Source: Omnitrophica WOR_2 bacterium GWF2_43_52
Lineage (GTDB): Bacteria; Omnitrophota; Gorgyraeia; Gygaellales; UBA12090
Reading direction: 5' to 3'
Assembly: GCA_001805445.1 (NCBI GenBank)
Contig: MHGF01000038.1
Span: forward strand, 4,912 to 68,911
Length of the DNA: 64,000 nt
Below are positions 13,751-53,582 of the stretch, piece after piece; the first letter of the stretch is position 1, and every line of letters begins with the position of its first letter. A program made the position numbers and the translations under genes. The notes under the pieces are model-generated. The model made no database searches and was not told where the DNA came from. It was given only the letters and a program-made list of their open reading frames with translations.

Positions 13751-14389
13751 TTACTTTTGCTCTAAATCTCTGAGCATTTGTTTGCAGGCCTCGCGGATAT
13801 CGGTCGCGGCTTTTTGAGAAAGCACAAGATAAAAACCGCCTTTCATTTTTTCGTCGGTTTCCTCAAACATCGCCTCAACAAGCAGAGCGCTATCACCAGA
13901 AGCTGAAGAAGAAAGGATTATATTGATAATTTCATCAAGGGTCCCTGAAATAAGCGTGGGAGGAAGCGATAATACCACTCTCTTAACAATCATTCCGATG
14001 GCATTGAGGTATGAACTGATAACAATATTACCTATCTCTTTAATAGTCGATAACCCCAGTTCGGTCATCACCGATGACCTCTTGTCTTCTTCGGCAATCC
14101 TGGCCGATACGTTAATCAGCTTAAAGGCATTCTTTTCATCTAAGATAAATACCGCCTGGCCCTGTATCCCTGTAGTTATCCTGCATATAACCGCGATGCC
14201 CATCCGATCTAAATCTATTTTGTTAGAAACCCCCTCGCAGGAAACCATATCAACCGAGGGAATGGTAAGATAAATTTTCTTACCCAAAATCTCAGAAAGC
14301 GCGATACTACCGTGCGAAGCCGCGATGCTTCCTACTTCCCTAATAATATCTAATTCATCATGCATGCGAATCTCCTCCTTTAAAGACAC
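13751..14389 (-). CDS. CheC/CheX-family (CheY-P phosphatase-like) protein, paralogue 1
   Basis: LDIIREVGSIAASHGSIALSEIL and TIKEIGNIVISSYLNAIG...P match the duplicated E-x2-N-x22-P CheC repeats (compare B. subtilis CheC DALREVGNIGAGNAATALSQL). Confidence 0.65.
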   Translation of the reverse strand: MSLKEEIRMHDELDIIREVGSIAASHGSIALSEILGKKIYLTIPSVDMVSCEGVSNKIDLDRMGIAVICRITTGIQGQAVFILDEKNAFKLINVSARIAEEDKRSSVMTELGLSTIKEIGNIVISSYLNAIGMIVKRVVLSLPPTLISGTLDEIINIILSSSASGDSALLVEAMFEETDEKMKGGFYLVLSQKAATDIREACKQMLRDLEQK

Positions 14390-14416: not shown

Positions 14417-15031
14417 TTATTGCTTCTTGAGGTCTTCAAGCATCTGTTCACAGGCCGCCCTAATATCCGCGGCCGCCTTCTGGGATAACAACAGATAAAA
14501 ACTGCCTTTTATTTTTTGCTCCGGCTCTTCAAATACCGCTTCAATAAGCAAGGCATAATCATCAACCCCGGAAGAAGCAATAATAATGTTAATGATCTCA
14601 CTAATCGTTCCGGAAATAAGTGTTGGGGGAAGCGACAGGATTACCCTTTTCAAGATTACGCTTATAGCGCTTAGATACGCGTTAATGACGATACTGCCGA
14701 TTTCCTTGATCGTAGACATCCCCATCTCAGTAATTAATTCTGACTTTTTATCAACGTCGCTTACTGACGGCGATAACCCCAGCAACTTAAAGGCATTCCG
14801 TTCATCCAAGATAAAGGCAGACTCGCCTTTTAATCCCGTAAAAATTCTACAAACAACCGTAATCCCCGTCTCTTTCGCCCCTAGTTTCTTGGAAATATTG
14901 TTACAAGAGACCATATCAATAGACGGCATAAGAAGCGTTATTTTCTTTCCCAGAATCTCCGAGAGAGCCATCCCCCCATGTGCCGCGGCAATGCTTCCTA
15001 CCTCTCGCAAAATATCCATTTCATCCTTCAT
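14417..15031 (-). CDS. CheC/CheX-family protein, paralogue 2 (tandem duplicate)
   Basis: Colinear with the upstream paralogue over its full length (ILREVGSIAAAHGGMALSEILGKK ... IKEIGSIVINAYLSAIS). Confidence 0.65.
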   Translation of the reverse strand: MKDEMDILREVGSIAAAHGGMALSEILGKKITLLMPSIDMVSCNNISKKLGAKETGITVVCRIFTGLKGESAFILDERNAFKLLGLSPSVSDVDKKSELITEMGMSTIKEIGSIVINAYLSAISVILKRVILSLPPTLISGTISEIINIIIASSGVDDYALLIEAVFEEPEQKIKGSFYLLLSQKAAADIRAACEQMLEDLKKQ

Positions 15032-15059: not shown

Positions 15060-15734
15060 TTACTTGGGTATACAGTGATTCAGTATATCAAAAATCGGCG
15101 CTAAACCCAACACATTTATTTTATTCGCGGCCCGCGGCGTTTTCATCAATAACAGTAAATCGTCACGCGTATCCACATCAAATGAAGCCCTTAAAAACCT
15201 ACAGCTTATTTTTGACTTTTTTAATCTGTCTATAGTTTGACGCAAAACATTTTTTGTTCCCCAGCGTATTCCTTTAAATATCTTCCCGGAAAAAGAAGAT
15301 AGCCCGATAAGATAATAGCCGCCGTCAAAGGCAGGGCCGAGGACGCACGTAGCCCTTTTTAATTTTACGAACGCATCGCGTACTGTTCGTTTATCGAGCA
15401 AAGGGCTATCTGAGCCAATCGCAATCACATGCCCTGCCCCATGCTTAAAAGCAAATTCAAATGCATGGGCTAACCTTTCTCCCAGATTATTTCCTTTTTG
15501 CAACTGGAGAGTAAGGCCGCTGCCCAGCCAACGCGTGATTTCTTTTTTCTTGTCAGCTGGCGTATAGAAGATTATCCTCTGGTAATTTGTATCATCTGTC
15601 CTTAAAAGCAGCGCCTCAACAAACAAACGGTAGAGACGCGCGGCCTTATCCGCGCCGATATGCTTTGCCAATCTTGTCTTAACCAAGCCTGCCTGAGGAT
15701 AGCGGATAAAGATGATGAGAATATCAGATTGCAT
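15060..15734 (-). CDS. DUF2064 / TIGR04282-family glycosyltransferase-like (nucleotidyltransferase-fold) protein
   Basis: ILIIFIRYPQAGLVKTRLA...GSDSP...GPAFDGGYYLIG matches the DUF2064 family. Confidence 0.55.
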   Translation of the reverse strand: MQSDILIIFIRYPQAGLVKTRLAKHIGADKAARLYRLFVEALLLRTDDTNYQRIIFYTPADKKKEITRWLGSGLTLQLQKGNNLGERLAHAFEFAFKHGAGHVIAIGSDSPLLDKRTVRDAFVKLKRATCVLGPAFDGGYYLIGLSSFSGKIFKGIRWGTKNVLRQTIDRLKKSKISCRFLRASFDVDTRDDLLLLMKTPRAANKINVLGLAPIFDILNHCIPK

Positions 15735-15779
15735 AGTTTAACAGCCAGCTCCTCTAGTGCTCCGTTACCTTAATTCTTA

Positions 15780-15910
15780 AAGGATACGGGATACCGAAAT
15801 TCCACATCGGCGTGCTGATGAAATACCTATCCGCGGAAAGGAAACGCTCGATATGGCGCTCTATGGGGTTCCAGGCCTCTTTAAGTTGTTCGGTAAGCTC
15901 TTTTCCGCTC
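15780..15910 (-). pseudogene. About 130-bp fragment of an FMN-dependent NADH-azoreductase gene (around 90% identical to 18259-18389), not translatable as a gene
   Basis: Direct nucleotide comparison. The block ggataccgaaattccacatcggcgtgctgat...ccgcggaaaggaa(a/c)cgctcgatatggcgctctatgg is shared with the intact azoR-like gene at 17948-18578. Confidence 0.6.
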
Positions 15911-16002
15911 TAAAAAATCACTGTGTATAACGGTTTACGAATAAAAGAAGTTGCCGAAGGCGAAGCAAATCTGCAGAGTTCCGAACCCTGGACGGATTTT
16001 TC

Positions 16003-17583
16003 TCATTTTCCCTCCACGAATACAGGAATTTTCTTTAATACTACTATAACTTTTCCATTAGCTATTGCTTTTGATTCTATTTTAAAGAAACTTGGATAAT
16101 CATTCTCATCCAAATCTGCTCCAGATTCTGTATTTGGAATTGCTTCGGTTATCTTAACTGATTTAAAGTCGCCTATATCTAAAATAATAGTTTTCGAATC
16201 CTGCTCTTCCTTCCAATAATCCCACCATGCTACATAGGTTGGGTTGCCATTCTTAATGAATTTATATAAATAAACATTATCAACTTCTGTTTTAATCGCT
16301 CTAATATTACTCCAATCGCTTCCTTTCAAAATTTCAATGAGTTTTTTGAATGCGTAATAGGAAAGCTTTTTTATGCCCTTCCCCGGATCTGGGCAGGGCA
16401 ACCATCCTTCGCTGCATTTCTGCTTTCTTGATTTCCCGTCAGGAATACCATTATAAATAAGCCCTATATAATTAAAATGTACATTGAACTCGCCTTGGTA
16501 TTTCCTATGTTCATAAACAGTTGACCAAGGGATTTTTTGGGTGTTGTTGGCAAGATTATAAATAAATCTTTTAGCCAAAAATTCTGCTTGCTGCTGTTCG
16601 CTTTGGTAATTATCCATCAAATGTTTTCTTTCTTGGATGTCTTTTCCTGAATAAGTTGCGCCTGCTCTTATCAGGAATTCTTTATCGCCATAGCCGTTAT
16701 TTTTCAAAAAATTAATAAAGTCTTTTGCTTCATAACCAGCCTCATTTTTCGCGTAATTATTAAATTCCCCGAACCAGTGCGATTCCCAGTAATCAAACGG
16801 CTCGTAGGCAAGCTTAGATTGTTTAAGCTTTGAAAATACAAGCCGGTAAAATTCGCCATGCTTGCCTTCAAGGTCAGTAAAGGAGCCGGCTCCAGCCAGA
16901 ACTATCTTTGACTGCGAAGATAGGTTTCTCAATATTTCTGCCGAATCAATTACGAAATTAACATACGCTGTGGCTGCCTTGTCACTATCTTTATCAAAGG
17001 TATCCTTGTATTCAGCATTAACTTCATTATAAAGGTTCCAGCGGACTACATACCAATCAGGATTGACCGACACTTTCCTCCCGTATGAATTCACAAAATT
17101 AACTAAAGCTGTTAGGTAATCCTTATATGCTTGCCGGGAAACTGAACCGTCCGGCAGATAGGTCTTTTTATCTTTCCTTTCTTTTCCGTCGATAAATTTA
17201 TAGTTTGAAGGAGGCCCAATGACAATCCATACGTGTGTCTTTCCTTGCCCCACCACTAAATCAATTAATTCTTTTGCCTGTGAAAAATCATACTGCTGGC
17301 AAGTAAATTTACCGCATTTCACTTCGGCTTGTTTCCTGCCTATTATATCAACGACGAATCCGGCTCCGTTGGCGTCTTTACTCAAACCAAGATCTTTTAA
17401 AATTGCAGGCAACGCGTTTCCTGCTTCCGTATCTTTTTGATCATAAGGATTACTTAAACCAAAAGGAATCTCTTCGGCTGAAAAGTTTGGTTCAGGGAAA
17501 GCAGGCTTTTGAAAAACCGAAAATGAACCACTACCCACAGCAATGATTATAACTGCAATGATCAAAATGATTAGTTTATTCAT
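16003..17583 (-). CDS. Secreted hypothetical protein, possibly a clan GH-A-like glycoside hydrolase
   Basis: N-terminal signal/TM MNKLIILIIAVIIIAVGSG. Internal NEVNAEY resembles the NEP catalytic-acid motif of TIM-barrel glycosidases. Weak. Confidence 0.4.
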   Translation of the reverse strand: MNKLIILIIAVIIIAVGSGSFSVFQKPAFPEPNFSAEEIPFGLSNPYDQKDTEAGNALPAILKDLGLSKDANGAGFVVDIIGRKQAEVKCGKFTCQQYDFSQAKELIDLVVGQGKTHVWIVIGPPSNYKFIDGKERKDKKTYLPDGSVSRQAYKDYLTALVNFVNSYGRKVSVNPDWYVVRWNLYNEVNAEYKDTFDKDSDKAATAYVNFVIDSAEILRNLSSQSKIVLAGAGSFTDLEGKHGEFYRLVFSKLKQSKLAYEPFDYWESHWFGEFNNYAKNEAGYEAKDFINFLKNNGYGDKEFLIRAGATYSGKDIQERKHLMDNYQSEQQQAEFLAKRFIYNLANNTQKIPWSTVYEHRKYQGEFNVHFNYIGLIYNGIPDGKSRKQKCSEGWLPCPDPGKGIKKLSYYAFKKLIEILKGSDWSNIRAIKTEVDNVYLYKFIKNGNPTYVAWWDYWKEEQDSKTIILDIGDFKSVKITEAIPNTESGADLDENDYPSFFKIESKAIANGKVIVVLKKIPVFVEGK

Positions 17584-17710
17584 ATTTTTTGTTGCACATT
17601 AACCCCGATTTGCCTGACTTTACCCTCATTCCAGAATATAACGCCTGAGTTTTGCAAACTTGAAAAAAGAAAGGCTTCGCGCTCCATAATCTTCAGACTG
17701 CCCGCCAAAC

Positions 17711-17742
17711 TAAAAAGCCGGAGATTTAATTCCCCGGCTTTA
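17711..17742 (-). terminator. Rho-independent terminator downstream of the azoreductase gene
   Basis: The minus strand reads AGCCGGGG-aattaaat-CTCCGGCT followed by TTTTAG. Confidence 0.5.
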
Positions 17743-17947
17743 CATATTAAAACATATCCAATGCTTCTCATTGCCTTATCCGCTTTCTGCTTTATCTTCG
17801 CCTCCTTCGCCTCATCCATAGCAGCTATTATATCATCTCTAAGATACGCTTCAACGCTATTCTAACTTAAAAACCCTCTTTCCTGCCTTCACATCTCCCT
17901 GCTCTTTTCTGGCTCTTAATACCTAAAGGATAAGTACATAGTGTTCT

Positions 17948-18578
17948 TCATAAAGTATCTGCGGTTTTTCTTGCCAGCCCCTTCGCTTCTTCAATCTTCT
18001 CATTTTGTATCTCCGGCCCCATCGCGTCCATCGGTTGGGCATTAATAAAGGTGATATCGGTTATTCCCACAAATCCAAAAATAGCGCGCAGGTACGGCTC
18101 CTCGAAATCATAAGCGCGGAATGGGCTTTCCGGGCTGTAATCGCCGCCGCGGCTGGTAATCACTGTCATCTTTCGGTTCTTCACCAAGCCCTCAACCCCT
18201 TTCTCGGTGTAACGGAAAAGGTATTTTGGCTGAATAATCAAGTCAATGTACTGTTTCAAAGGATATGGGATACCGAAATTCCACATCGGCGTGCTGATTA
18301 AATACCCATCCGCGGAAAGGAACCGCTCGATATGGCGCTCTATGGGATTCCAAGCCTCTTTCTGCTTCTCGTTAAGCTCTTTTCCTCCCAATAAGACATA
18401 CTTGCCATCAATCATCTTTAAGGTAAGACTGGGAAGAGTATCAGTCGCAACGTTTAATTCGTCAATCTTACAATCGGGATTTTTTTTGCTCAAAGCTTCT
18501 AAAAATGCCTGGCTGACCTTAAGCGTCCGCGAATCATCCCCTCTCGGCGTGGCAATGATGTGTAATAGCTTTTTCATA
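17948..18578 (-). CDS. azoR: FMN-dependent NADH-azoreductase / NAD(P)H:quinone oxidoreductase (AcpD/AzoR family)
   Basis: MKKLLHIIATPRGDDSRTLKVSQAFLEAL...ISTPMWNFGIPYPLKQYIDLI is typical of AzoR. Start taken at MKKLLHI. Confidence 0.8.
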
Positions 18579-18763
18579 TTTTCACCCTCCTCAATGAGCA
18601 CTTGACTTATGGAGTCCGCAGGACGAACATAAGTCAATGTGCGAATTGATCCCGAAGCGTGCGAAGTAAATTTCGCAGAAATTTACGAGCGCTTACGCAA
18701 GGGATATTTAATGTATGCGAGTTGTCTATGCCTGGCATTGCTCATCCTTGACTACGGCGTATT

Positions 18764-31911: not shown

Positions 31912-32637
31912 CTATTTTCTCTGCCGGCATACTTCATAGCAAACAATTCCTGAGGCGATAGCAGCATTAAATGATAACGCTGCCCCCTTGGCAGGGATGG
32001 TAAAGGTAACATCAAGTTGCTTTAATAAGCCGTGGCGGATGCCTTTTGCTTCTGAACCAATAACTAAGCCCAAAGGGAAGGTAAAATGTACTTTCGGTAA
32101 AGCCTGGCCGCCACCAACCATTGCGCCCGCGATAGAGTATCCACACTGCTTTGCCTCATTTATTGCCGATGACAAATTCGTTACCTGCGTAATAGAAACA
32201 TAGTTTTCACCACCTGAGGCAACACGCAATACCGCCTCAGTAATCTCTACAGAATCATGCTTCGGTAATACTATGGCAAAACCACCGAAGCAGGCCGCGC
32301 TGCGGAGGATACTTCCGAAATTCTGCGGGTCATTGAGGCTATCCAGGAAAATAAGTGTAGGGAGTTTTTCTTGCGGCAGAGAAAGGATAGCATCGAGTGT
32401 CGTATAGTAAAACTTCTCCACATCAGCGATAATCCCTTGGGCGCGGATATTTCTTGAAATCTTCTCAAAGTCCCTTTCCGAAAGATAACGAATAGGAATA
32501 CGCTTTAACTTACAAAGCTGCTCTAGCCCTTTTACATCCTGGCTCTTATCAATAAGAACATGATGTATCGTCTCTGGATTTACCTTGAGGCGTTCAGAAA
32601 CGGAATTCCTGCCATATAATCGAAAAAACTGTCCCAT
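31912..32637 (-). CDS. SpoU/TrmH-family RNA 2'-O-methyltransferase (RlmB-like)
   Basis: LDSLNDPQNFGSILRSAACFG...GSEAKGIR...ALSFNAAIASGIVCYE are SPOUT motifs. Confidence 0.8.
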   Translation of the reverse strand: MGQFFRLYGRNSVSERLKVNPETIHHVLIDKSQDVKGLEQLCKLKRIPIRYLSERDFEKISRNIRAQGIIADVEKFYYTTLDAILSLPQEKLPTLIFLDSLNDPQNFGSILRSAACFGGFAIVLPKHDSVEITEAVLRVASGGENYVSITQVTNLSSAINEAKQCGYSIAGAMVGGGQALPKVHFTFPLGLVIGSEAKGIRHGLLKQLDVTFTIPAKGAALSFNAAIASGIVCYEVCRQRK

Positions 32638-32855
32638 AGTGCTCCGTCAAATTAATTCTTATGGATAGGCGGAATTTGACTCCGCACTTCCGCTATGGGG
32701 GCAAGCCCCCCTTCGGCGCTCTCCGCCTACGGCGGATCGCTGAGCACCCCCCAATCGCGGGGAAAATATTTCCCCGCGCCCCTTTTCGTACACCGTCACA
32801 CTAATAAAAACTAATTTGATGGTGTACGAGTGCTCCGTTAACTTAATTTTTATGG
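32638..32855. repeat. GC-rich multi-hairpin element bounded by 27-bp direct repeats (agtgctccgtcaaattaattcttatgg / agtgctccgttaacttaatttttatgg). A third copy of the 27-mer lies at 15757-15783
   Basis: The hairpins are gggggcaagccccc, ccgcctacggcgg, cgcggggaaaatatttccccgcg and cgtacacc...ggtgtacg. The motif abuts the rlmB start codon and, at 15757, the azoR pseudogene fragment. Confidence 0.55.
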
Positions 32856-32897
32856 GTAAAGCGAAAGTGCCTCAACTATAACCGTAGAAGTGTATGC

Positions 32898-33137
32898 TTA
32901 CTCTAAAATATCTCCAACGATAGAGTCTATAATGACTCCTGCTTTTTTTAAAAACTCAATCCCCTTATCTAAATCCTGTTCTTTGCCCTCCAACTCCAAT
33001 ACTAATTCTCCAACAGTTTCAGTAACCTTTGCCCGGCGGATATTAGGCAAAATGTTATACTTTTTTGCCATCTGAAAGGTAAGCGGCTCTTTGACCAAAT
33101 CTTGCGGAAAGGTAAGTTTTATCACTCGTTTTGCCAT
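32898..33137 (-). CDS. NIL-domain protein (stand-alone)
   Basis: 79 aa. It resembles the C-terminal NIL domain of MetN and NIL-ferredoxin proteins linked to sulfur amino-acid metabolism. Confidence 0.5.
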   Translation of the reverse strand: MAKRVIKLTFPQDLVKEPLTFQMAKKYNILPNIRRAKVTETVGELVLELEGKEQDLDKGIEFLKKAGVIIDSIVGDILE

Positions 33138-53412: not shown

Positions 53413-53582
53413 AGAATAACAAAAAGATAAACTTTGTCAAGAAAAATTTTGGGAGTTTCCTACTAGACTGTTACATTAGTTTGCAGTAGTCATTTATTTA
53501 CACCTGCGACGAGGTATCACCTCGTCGCGAGGCGATACCTCGTAGATGAACGCAAGGTTATCTTTTTAGATTTTTGAAACCA

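Follow-up and report, generated by a model that had tools for sequence, protein, structure and literature searches.

The Correia elements of Neisseria (NEMIS/CREE) are MITEs (miniature inverted-repeat transposable elements) of ~100-150 bp, with terminal inverted repeats (TIRs) and a TA duplication, that are often co-transcribed with their neighbours, have hairpin folds and can supply expression signals. They occur in both orientations and bring promoters and RNase III sites, not the ribosome-binding site (RBS) of a start codon; we know of no autonomous partner for them. A second described family is the Repeat Unit of Pneumococcus (RUP), a 107-bp MITE with TIRs like those of the insertion sequence (IS) IS630-Spn1 (Croucher et al. 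2011, PMC3049150). Insertion into TA, with duplication of the TA, is a hallmark of IS630/Tc1-mariner elements (PMC2170065), and IS630 is cited as preferring CTAG targets (Tenzen & Ohtsubo 1991, as cited in PMC2170065). Here, we describe an element of this general kind in a 64-kb stretch of contig MHGF01000038.1 of Omnitrophica WOR_2 bacterium GWF2_43_52; this whole stretch is referred to below as the window. We consider it very probable that a short motif found at three junctions in the window is the right TIR (TIR-R) of an IS630-type MITE, and that a gene fragment beside one of these sites is what is left of an azoreductase-type paralogue, azoR2, mostly deleted after an insertion at its stop codon. 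The observations behind this are the homologous sites themselves, the inverted ends of the element, its TA flanks, the same end on transposase genes, its occurrence at unrelated loci and the pre-insertion allele in relatives.

RUP is the closest documented analogue of the element. Both are small, non-coding and multi-copy, with IS630-type TIRs, a target-site duplication and presumed mobilization in trans; both tend to insert in or beside other copies or IS, and are predicted to fold stably when transcribed. The present element differs in being about twice as long, in having a GC-rich core unrelated to the IS interior, and in its conservation across many species of a phylum. It is also strongly biased to the gene orientation at stop and start codons, with a GGAG in its right end, whereas RUP is AT-rich and over-represented between convergent genes. 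From the Correia elements it differs in sequence and in host. The IS relatives of the element resemble IS630/ISY100 (Feng & Colloms 2007, PMC2170065) in having DDE_3 with an N-terminal helix-turn-helix (HTH), TIRs and a TA duplication. Unlike in that system, what the window holds is a non-autonomous derivative and two truncated ends, and no IS, and the transposase open reading frame (ORF) of this lineage runs to the tip of the element (...KINVTEH*-TAG).

The terminal repeat and the element that carries it

Nearly all genes of the window lie on the minus strand, so that all features are read on that strand. A profile hidden Markov model (HMM) of TIR-R, trained solely on copies from outside the window, finds exactly three sites in the window, at E = 1.8e-10, 1.3e-9 and 2.3e-7, whereas the strongest match elsewhere has E = 2. 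The three sites are clearly homologous, and belong to the following features.

15757-15784, minus strand: solo right TIR of an IS630-type element (TIR-R HMM E = 2.3e-7)
32639-32827, minus strand: complete putative MITE, 189 nt (covariance model 188 bits; RNA fold z = -5.4; inverted ends)
32639-32670, minus strand: right TIR of the complete element, the copy at 32638 in the first-pass annotation (TIR-R HMM E = 1.8e-10)
32706-32791, minus strand: GC-rich structured core of the complete element (similar to Rfam RF02937, below threshold)
32801-32827, minus strand: left TIR (TIR-L) of the complete element, also the 5' arm of an AT-rich hairpin (TIR-L HMM E = 2.6e-4)
32830-32868, minus strand: 5'-truncated right end of a presumably older element (TIR-R HMM E = 1.3e-9; partial covariance model match at 32841-32868)

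The first-pass annotation, made from the sequence of the window, had taken the three sites for the same 27-mer. They are not an exact repeat: the string at 15756-15783, AGTGCTCCGTTACCTTAATTCTTAAAGG, has no second match to its 28 nt in the window, even with three mismatches allowed, and the sites at 32638 and 32829 are diverged homologues of it, identical at 22 of 25 and 22 of 24 positions. On the gene strand, the motif is TAAGAATTAAnnTnACGGAGCACT, with a start codon within a few bases after it.

A search pattern of 20 specified bases, fitting all three window sites, was run on one genome per species and on metagenomes. It gave 10 loci in the species-representative genomes, seven of them titled Omnitrophota or Omnitrophica and derived from marine, aquifer, forest-groundwater and deep-mine samples; of the remaining three, two are copies of the element, on contigs that bear the labels Vicingus and Planctomycetales, and one is the end of an IS of Methanosaeta. 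A further 34 loci came from metagenomes, and there was no match in a plasmid collection. The pattern is common to the Omnitrophota elements and the solo end at 15757-15784. At nearly all of the 10 species-representative loci, a conserved element of ~190 nt has the motif as its final 24-30 nt, and in most loci of both searches the motif is such a 3' end. Read from 5' to 3', this element opens with an AT-rich hairpin and then a G-rich one, goes on through GGGGGGTGCTCAGC, a variable hairpin and the string GCGCCGAAGGGGGG-CTTG-CCCCCC-TAGCGG, and finishes with a 3' module that contains the motif. The 21 full copies are non-coding and 106-225 nt long, typically ~190 nt. In the window, a covariance model of the element finds one complete copy (32638-32829, 188 bits) and otherwise only 3'-end fragments, at 32841-32868 and 15758-15806.

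At its two ends, the element has imperfect inverted repeats, 26-30 bp in length (24/30 identical in L008, 21/26 in L015). When six elements were compared with shuffled sequences, four had 0-1 of 500 shuffles scoring as well, and two were not significant; the TIR-L HMM also matches the TIR-R sites, in inverse orientation. TA is present on both flanks in 19 of the 21 full copies, as read from the flanks themselves and not from pairs of empty and filled sites. Of these 19, 15 have a C immediately ahead of the 5' TA, and past the 3' TA there is usually a G, pointing to a C-TA-G target. There are ~25 distinct element loci, beside different genes, with at least two copies in one metagenome-assembled genome (MHGN01; L013 and L016) and at least three on one 177-kb contig (L054 and L060). 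Given the inverted ends, the TA flanks and the occurrence of the same end on transposase genes, described below, the element appears to be a MITE with IS630-type ends, of which the 27-mer would be the right inverted repeat. The earlier suggestion that the motif is the end sequence of a small mobile element has therefore been sustained. The family appears to be undescribed: in the literature searched, there were no described repeat or MITE families of Omnitrophota, and neither MITE nor IS630 is mentioned in the Omnitrophota complete-genome preprint.

A short form of the element (L056, 106 nt) and a long form (L058, 225 nt) have identical last 37 nt and the same coaC-like gene downstream, and differ upstream. 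Either one form derives from the other type by internal deletion or rearrangement, or the assembly is chimeric at the repeat; as they share only 237 nt (100% identical), their treatment as one locus with an internal deletion was not used.

Relationship to IS630-type transposases

At one locus (L010) and nine metagenome loci, an ORF that closes with ...FHYTPKKGSWLNMAEIE...NLKINVTEH* or a variant tail has the motif as its end. The ORF ending in ...VTEH* matches Pfam DDE_3 (PF13358) with 32.2 bits against a cutoff of 28.6, and its last codons (...KINVTEH*) and stop codon fall inside the right repeat. Transposase ORFs closed by the motif occur at no fewer than five different flanks. The transposase has 2464 homologues, in the main short DDE_3 ORFs, as is usual for the IS630 family; nearly all of the 120 listed are annotated as PF13358, and the ...VTEH tail is common to one sub-lineage. 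Two loci (L020/L021) contain a complete IS of ~1.2 kb, with an ORF of the HTH_23/28/29/32 type upstream of the DDE_3 ORF and with the ends TA-GTGC...GCAC-TA; the transposase reading frame is broken there into three ORFs. At each of the 20 specified bases the right end of the MITE agrees with those of the IS, an identity that the search pattern itself required, and its left end is identical to the IS left end in L055 at 18 of 23 positions. On these features, the full-length relatives (L020/L021, together with the right ends in L010, L032, L045, L062 and L064) fit the IS630/Tc1-mariner family.

The full-length IS copies with this right end that can be assigned to an organism (L010, L062 and L064, and also L032, L045 and L059) are on contigs attributed to the archaeon Methanosaeta sp. 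(PtaB.Bin039 / PtaU1.Bin028). These contigs have a GC content of 47-53%, compared with 43-46% for the Omnitrophota contigs that carry the small element. Both cross-domain sharing and mis-binning are possible; an Omnitrophota predator of Methanothrix has been documented (PMC13153191).

It should be noted that the metagenome loci L032, L045, L059, L062 and L064 each contain exactly 132 nt of the IS. In L032, L045 and L062 this stub is the contig end itself; L059 is a full-length contig as well, and for L064 the cut is at the limit of the locus. Such stubs point to a repeat-induced assembly break, and hence to several copies of the IS in that population. Similarly, L031 ends inside an element of the window type, and L024/L025 start at the breakpoint of the gene relic described below.

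The complete element at 32.6 kb

The complete element lies between two genes.

31912-32637, minus strand: SpoU/rlmB-like methyltransferase gene, its start codon touching the complete element (Pfam SpoU_methylase, SpoU_sub_bind)
32898-33137, minus strand: NIL-domain gene, 79 aa (ORF list, PF09383)

As the first-pass annotation had seen, the sites at 32638 and 32829 bracket a block of GC-rich hairpins, and the former touches the ATG of the rlmB-like gene. The flanks of the element are TC (32828-32829), a degenerate TA, and TA (32637-32638), and the A of the latter is also the A of that ATG; the GGAG of the right TIR is placed 4 nt upstream of it. In the AT-rich hairpin, to which the left TIR contributes, helix 1 has compensatory changes in seven of its 11 pairs. 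On the other side, the truncated copy at 32830-32868 consists of the last ~40 nt of an element of a different subfamily, with AAGTTAAC in place of AATTTGAC, and the stop codon of the NIL-domain gene is 29 nt upstream of it. The two copies meet at GGAGCAC-TC-GTACACC, that is, TIR-R, a TA with one base changed, and TIR-L. Matching tandem junctions of TIR-R, TA and TIR-L are found in L040/L054, L047 and L055, as is to be expected because each element end regenerates the C-TA-G target. The newer, complete element would have landed on the TA flanking the older copy. For the genes that flank the element elsewhere, no usable orthologue was found in the window.

The probable azoR2 relic and the scar at 15.76 kb

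The solo end at 15757-15784 is part of a 268-nt spacer between the DUF2064 gene and an ORF of 526 aa. The features of this region are as follows.

15060-15734, minus strand: DUF2064 gene (Pfam PF09837, 116.9 bits)
15754-15756, minus strand: TAG, putative former stop codon of azoR2, with TA 15755-15756 as the presumed insertion target (alignment of relatives)
15779-15906, minus strand: putative azoR2 relic, an azoR-type, Flavodoxin_2 paralogue (nt 193-320 of the gene, frame open)
16003-17583, minus strand: ORF, 526 aa, no Pfam match
17948-18577, minus strand: azoR1, intact azoR-type gene (Flavodoxin_2/azoreductase-type), beside a transaldolase gene (Pfam Flavodoxin_2, 152.6 bits)

The azoreductase-like fragment is real. 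The alignment to the intact gene, which had been suggested as a check, pairs 15779-15906 with 18258-18385, ~2.48 kb away and in the same orientation, with 116 of 128 bases (90.6%) identical. Counted from the true ATG at 18577, the fragment corresponds to nt 193-320 (approximately aa 65-107) of a gene of 630 nt, and is therefore an internal piece. Its frame, ...PMWNFGIPYPLRIKVTEH*, is still open and closes at the ancestral TAG; in one public assembly, an ORF of 36 aa is annotated over it as 'Flavodoxin_2 (weak)'.

The first-pass annotation had regarded the fragment as a duplicated piece of the gene 2.4 kb away. Comparison with close relatives does not support this, because they have an intact azoR-type paralogue at the same position. 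The flanks of the scar are 97.7% identical to the window in L024/L025 and 91.3% in L023, at the nucleotide level. In these relatives the intact gene ends ...TTT TAG AGGAGC..., 19 nt before the ATG of the DUF2064 gene, and the homology of the window to L023, L024 and L025 resumes exactly at that TAG, at 15756. The window bases just before the TAG are those of the transposon end, ...ACGGAGCAC, and together with the TAG they give the C-TA-G signature of an insertion into the TA of a stop codon. Beyond the scar, the DUF2064 gene retains its own GAGGAG ribosome-binding site. With only 84% identity to azoR1 of the window, against 97.7% for the flanks, the azoR-type gene adjacent to DUF2064 in the relatives must be a paralogue (azoR2) and not azoR1. 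Over 107 bp, the relic and the intact gene adjoining DUF2064 in L023 have 89.7% identity, in line with the divergence of the flanks (91.3%). The L025 contig begins at the first base past the 3' breakpoint of the relic, where a fork in the assembly graph would be expected if intact and deleted haplotypes coexist. An azoR-type gene is also found in L066, beside a CheC/efflux cluster, and in a more distant relative with the gene order transaldolase, azoR, three other genes, DUF2064. A full-length copy of the azoR-type gene of the relatives was not recovered, P0242 giving synteny only.

On the strength of these alignments, the fragment appears to be an in-place relic of the azoR2 paralogue, of which azoR1 was not the source. 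The loss of azoR2 would be recent, because it is intact in the haplotype that is 97.7% identical. We infer that an element inserted into the TA of the TAG stop codon of azoR2, and that a later deletion, which reached from the interior of the element into the coding sequence, cost the gene its nt 321-630 and left only ~25 nt of the element. The end of the azoR homology runs over the few innermost bases of the solo end (TATCC/CCTTT); this overlap may be a microhomology junction, within which the deletion would have closed. The first 192 nt of azoR2 would also have been lost, leaving the relic of 128 bp. The order and mechanism of the deletions after insertion are part of this reconstruction, and the result is an ordinary kind of genome scar. 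No strain variants of the scar were seen: the spacer is identical in all six public contigs with an identical DUF2064 protein.

Two other candidates at this locus were rejected. A possible left-end relic at ~15929, TTATACACAGTGA, which would have made the fragment the 'cargo' of a MITE, was spotted by eye and dropped, as the TIR-L HMM gave E > 100. The relic and azoR1 do not behave as the template and variable repeats of a diversity-generating retroelement, since their 12 differences span all base types and are not adenine-specific; there is no reverse transcriptase among the neighbouring genes, according to Pfam annotation.

The interval between the azoR-type gene and DUF2064 (15735-18640) differs among relatives. 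The window version has ORFs of 79 and 526 aa, neither of known function. In one relative, genes of the Pyr_redox_2, VTT-domain and radical-SAM/methyltransferase types are found instead (an arsenosugar-type neighbourhood), and in other relatives the two genes are directly adjacent.

Placement at gene junctions and RNA structure

A same-strand ORF begins -1 to +25 nt past ...GGAGCACT in 19 of 27 element loci, and in 15 of them within -1 to +8. The upstream stop codon is within -3 to +13 nt in eight of 13 loci, and in four its place is taken by the element's own first three bases. The downstream genes are unrelated (hisA, rplP, rpmA, uvrA, argB, coaBC, lptB, rlmB, an mtnA-like gene and others). 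The first-pass annotation had considered the motif as a possible module upstream of many genes, which would speak against a mobile element. The motif does precede many unrelated genes, with its GGAG at ribosome-binding distance; however, it does so because a transposon end has been landing at gene junctions, and the mobile-element interpretation therefore stands. GGAG-type motifs are found upstream of half of the genes in the window.

The simplest reading is that junction placement results from target choice, survivorship and the design of the element together. A transposase acting in trans would excise the element and paste it into a TA, preferably within C-TA-G, duplicating the TA. The stop codons TAG and TAA contain this target, and in compact genomes the surviving copies would be those lying exactly between genes, as insertions would persist only if both neighbouring genes keep working. 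The element would recreate the stop codon, its 5' TA(G/A) often being the upstream stop codon, and would bring its own GGAG to 4-12 nt before the downstream start codon. Actual transposition in trans, and the use of this GGAG in translation, are suggested by the arrangement.

In L016/L053 (MHGN01000025.1) and L052 the element precedes ribosomal-protein genes: it is found 3 nt ahead of rplP (L16), which, from the usual gene order, would place it in the S10 operon, and 25 nt ahead of rpmA (L27). According to the Omnitrophota complete-genome preprint, 'hypervariable' windows include S10/spc operon content in 67% of genomes, and these windows may be related to the element before ribosomal-protein genes. 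A second retained solo right end, of 24 nt, is found in L009/L036 (MHFG01000040.1, 7915-7938), 1 nt past the TAG of the upstream gene. Its last base adjoins the ATG of a nadD-like gene, for which it probably serves as the sole ribosome-binding site.

The element is also predicted to be structured. In an alignment of the 21 full copies, 93.5% of cells are paired, compared with 39-48% in slid controls, with 18 pairs having compensatory changes and none of 500 shuffles reaching the observed values; since the copies are related to one another and their alignment was made to fit the model, these figures lean towards structure. In the 3' helix, a stretch of the right repeat is base-paired to a segment from within the element, and the GGAG is enclosed. 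The structure may act either as RNA, in translation control or stability, or as DNA. Simple scans of the gene strand of the scar and the complete element gave no sigma-70 promoter or terminator, and searches for tRNA or tmRNA, or of Rfam at its gathering thresholds, gave no match.

Below threshold, the core is similar to the Clostridiales-2 RNA (RF02937, typed as 'Gene; sRNA'), with the same two hairpins and the conserved GGGUGCUCAG / CGAAGGG, in five of six independent copies (E from 2e-9 to 0.016). The window core scores 37.3 bits (E = 4e-7), and other copies score 51.5, 46.0, 39.4 and 27.9 bits over the whole 82-nt model. All five scores are below the gathering score of 58.6 bits, and the element is therefore not filed as a member of RF02937, whose hosts belong to another phylum. 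The core of the element sits between transposon-type inverted repeats. A search of the literature for the motif names 'Clostridiales-2' and 'Omnitrophica-1' yielded nothing usable.

Alternatively, the ~190-nt element might be primarily a cis-regulatory leader RNA, that is, a 5' untranslated region or RBS module that is not mobile. The position directly before start codons, in gene orientation, in at least 19 of the 27 loci would suit such a role, as would the strong covariation, including that of the helix that pairs part of the 3' module, the pairing or enclosure of the GGAG in both predicted folds, and the resemblance of the core to an Rfam RNA family. A leader would not, however, be expected before genes that are functionally unrelated, nor to have inverted repeats with duplicated TA flanks as its ends, to share one of those ends with DDE_3 transposase genes, or to occur in tandem end-to-end copies and truncated relics. 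At 15.76 kb, moreover, the downstream gene has its own RBS, and relatives are without the motif. We consider it very unlikely that the element is a leader and not mobile; the two functions are compatible, since a MITE can also act as a leader.

A broader model may be stated, although as a whole it is unlikely. The element would be a phylum-wide, structurally constrained intercistronic RNA module on IS630-type ends that replaces the native RBS of housekeeping genes (rplP, rpmA, hisA, uvrA, coaBC, rlmB and others) and gates translation through the covarying helix enclosing the GGAG; its core would be homologous to the Clostridiales-2 sRNA, and the location of its closest autonomous transposase copies in Methanosaeta/Methanothrix, documented as prey of an Omnitrophota predator, would hint at transposon traffic across domains.

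Weight of the evidence

Several points weigh against the interpretation of the window as the product of an IS630-type MITE and its debris. No transposase gene is present in the 64 kb, and none of the full-length IS copies that were found can be assigned to Omnitrophota, so that mobilization in trans in this organism is an inference only. At the rlmB locus there is no empty site; the contigs with an identical NIL protein are all of one strain, and all are filled. The two-deletion history of azoR2 is a reconstruction, in which the 5' boundary of the relic is left unexplained, and the contigs of L024/L025 stop short of the relic segment, so that orthology there is a matter of position and of the contig break. 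Finally, in a three-way comparison over 107 nt, the relic shares six variant sites with azoR1 and two with L023, counts that were read from the alignment by eye (a script tally of 9 and 4 includes a misaligned tail). Because more variants are shared with azoR1, gene conversion or copying from azoR1 is still a candidate.

The last point leads to the proposal that the fragment was copied from azoR1 and captured in or next to the element, for example as filler DNA that came from template switching while a transposon excision break was repaired, which would make it a transduplication. The identity of 90.6% and the shared variant sites favour such a capture, the short overlap of sequences at the junction is compatible with it, and the scar, at ~174 nt, is of a size like that of a MITE. 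Against this, the intact azoR-type gene of the relatives has the same position and orientation, with homology from its stop codon, and the assembly of the sister haplotype breaks exactly at the 3' breakpoint of the relic. No left-end repeat is detected by the TIR-L HMM on the other side of the fragment, and the relic has diverged from L023 (89.7% identity) to the extent that the flanks have (91.3%). We therefore regard capture from azoR1 as improbable, to much the same degree as a purely regulatory element, and favour an in-place relic of azoR2. That the three sites are instead a site-specific recombination hotspot, such as the target of a recombinase, is barely credible: the motif is indeed at three rearranged junctions in the window, but there is no recombinase or integrase nearby, and the sites belong to a defined element whose ends are inverted and flanked by TA, in common with DDE_3 transposase genes, and in which the motif keeps throughout to one end and one orientation.

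Other features of the window

Downstream of the DUF2064 gene, 13751-14389 and 14417-15031 (minus strand) are tandem paralogues of 204-212 aa, one with a CheC-like Pfam match. They are ~65% identical to each other in nucleotides across relatives, and are kept downstream of DUF2064 in all relatives seen. In an intergenic region at 53455-53550 (plus strand), the string ACTAGACTGTTACATTAGTTT, weakly similar to the left repeat (HMM E = 0.13), has GC-rich hairpins after it, GCGACGAGGTATCACCTCGTCGC...; this may be a degenerate or a different small repeat element.

Implications for Omnitrophota

Three odd junctions in the window can be ascribed to one ordinary cause, an IS630-type MITE and its debris, and the azoR fragment is re-dated from a duplication to a recent, in-place gene loss. 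The family is conserved across marine, aquifer and deep-subsurface Omnitrophota, at the operon junctions of essential genes, where the element recreates a stop codon on one side and offers a ribosome-binding motif on the other. For annotation, it follows that such an element can yield spurious small ORFs, 'sRNA' calls and contig breaks; the Clostridiales-2 'sRNA' may itself be the core of a transposon. The assignable autonomous copies are only on contigs of Methanosaeta, a genus that includes the prey of an Omnitrophota predator (PMC13153191), and the element could be a marker for the exchange of mobile elements between Omnitrophota and the methanogens that are prey to some members.

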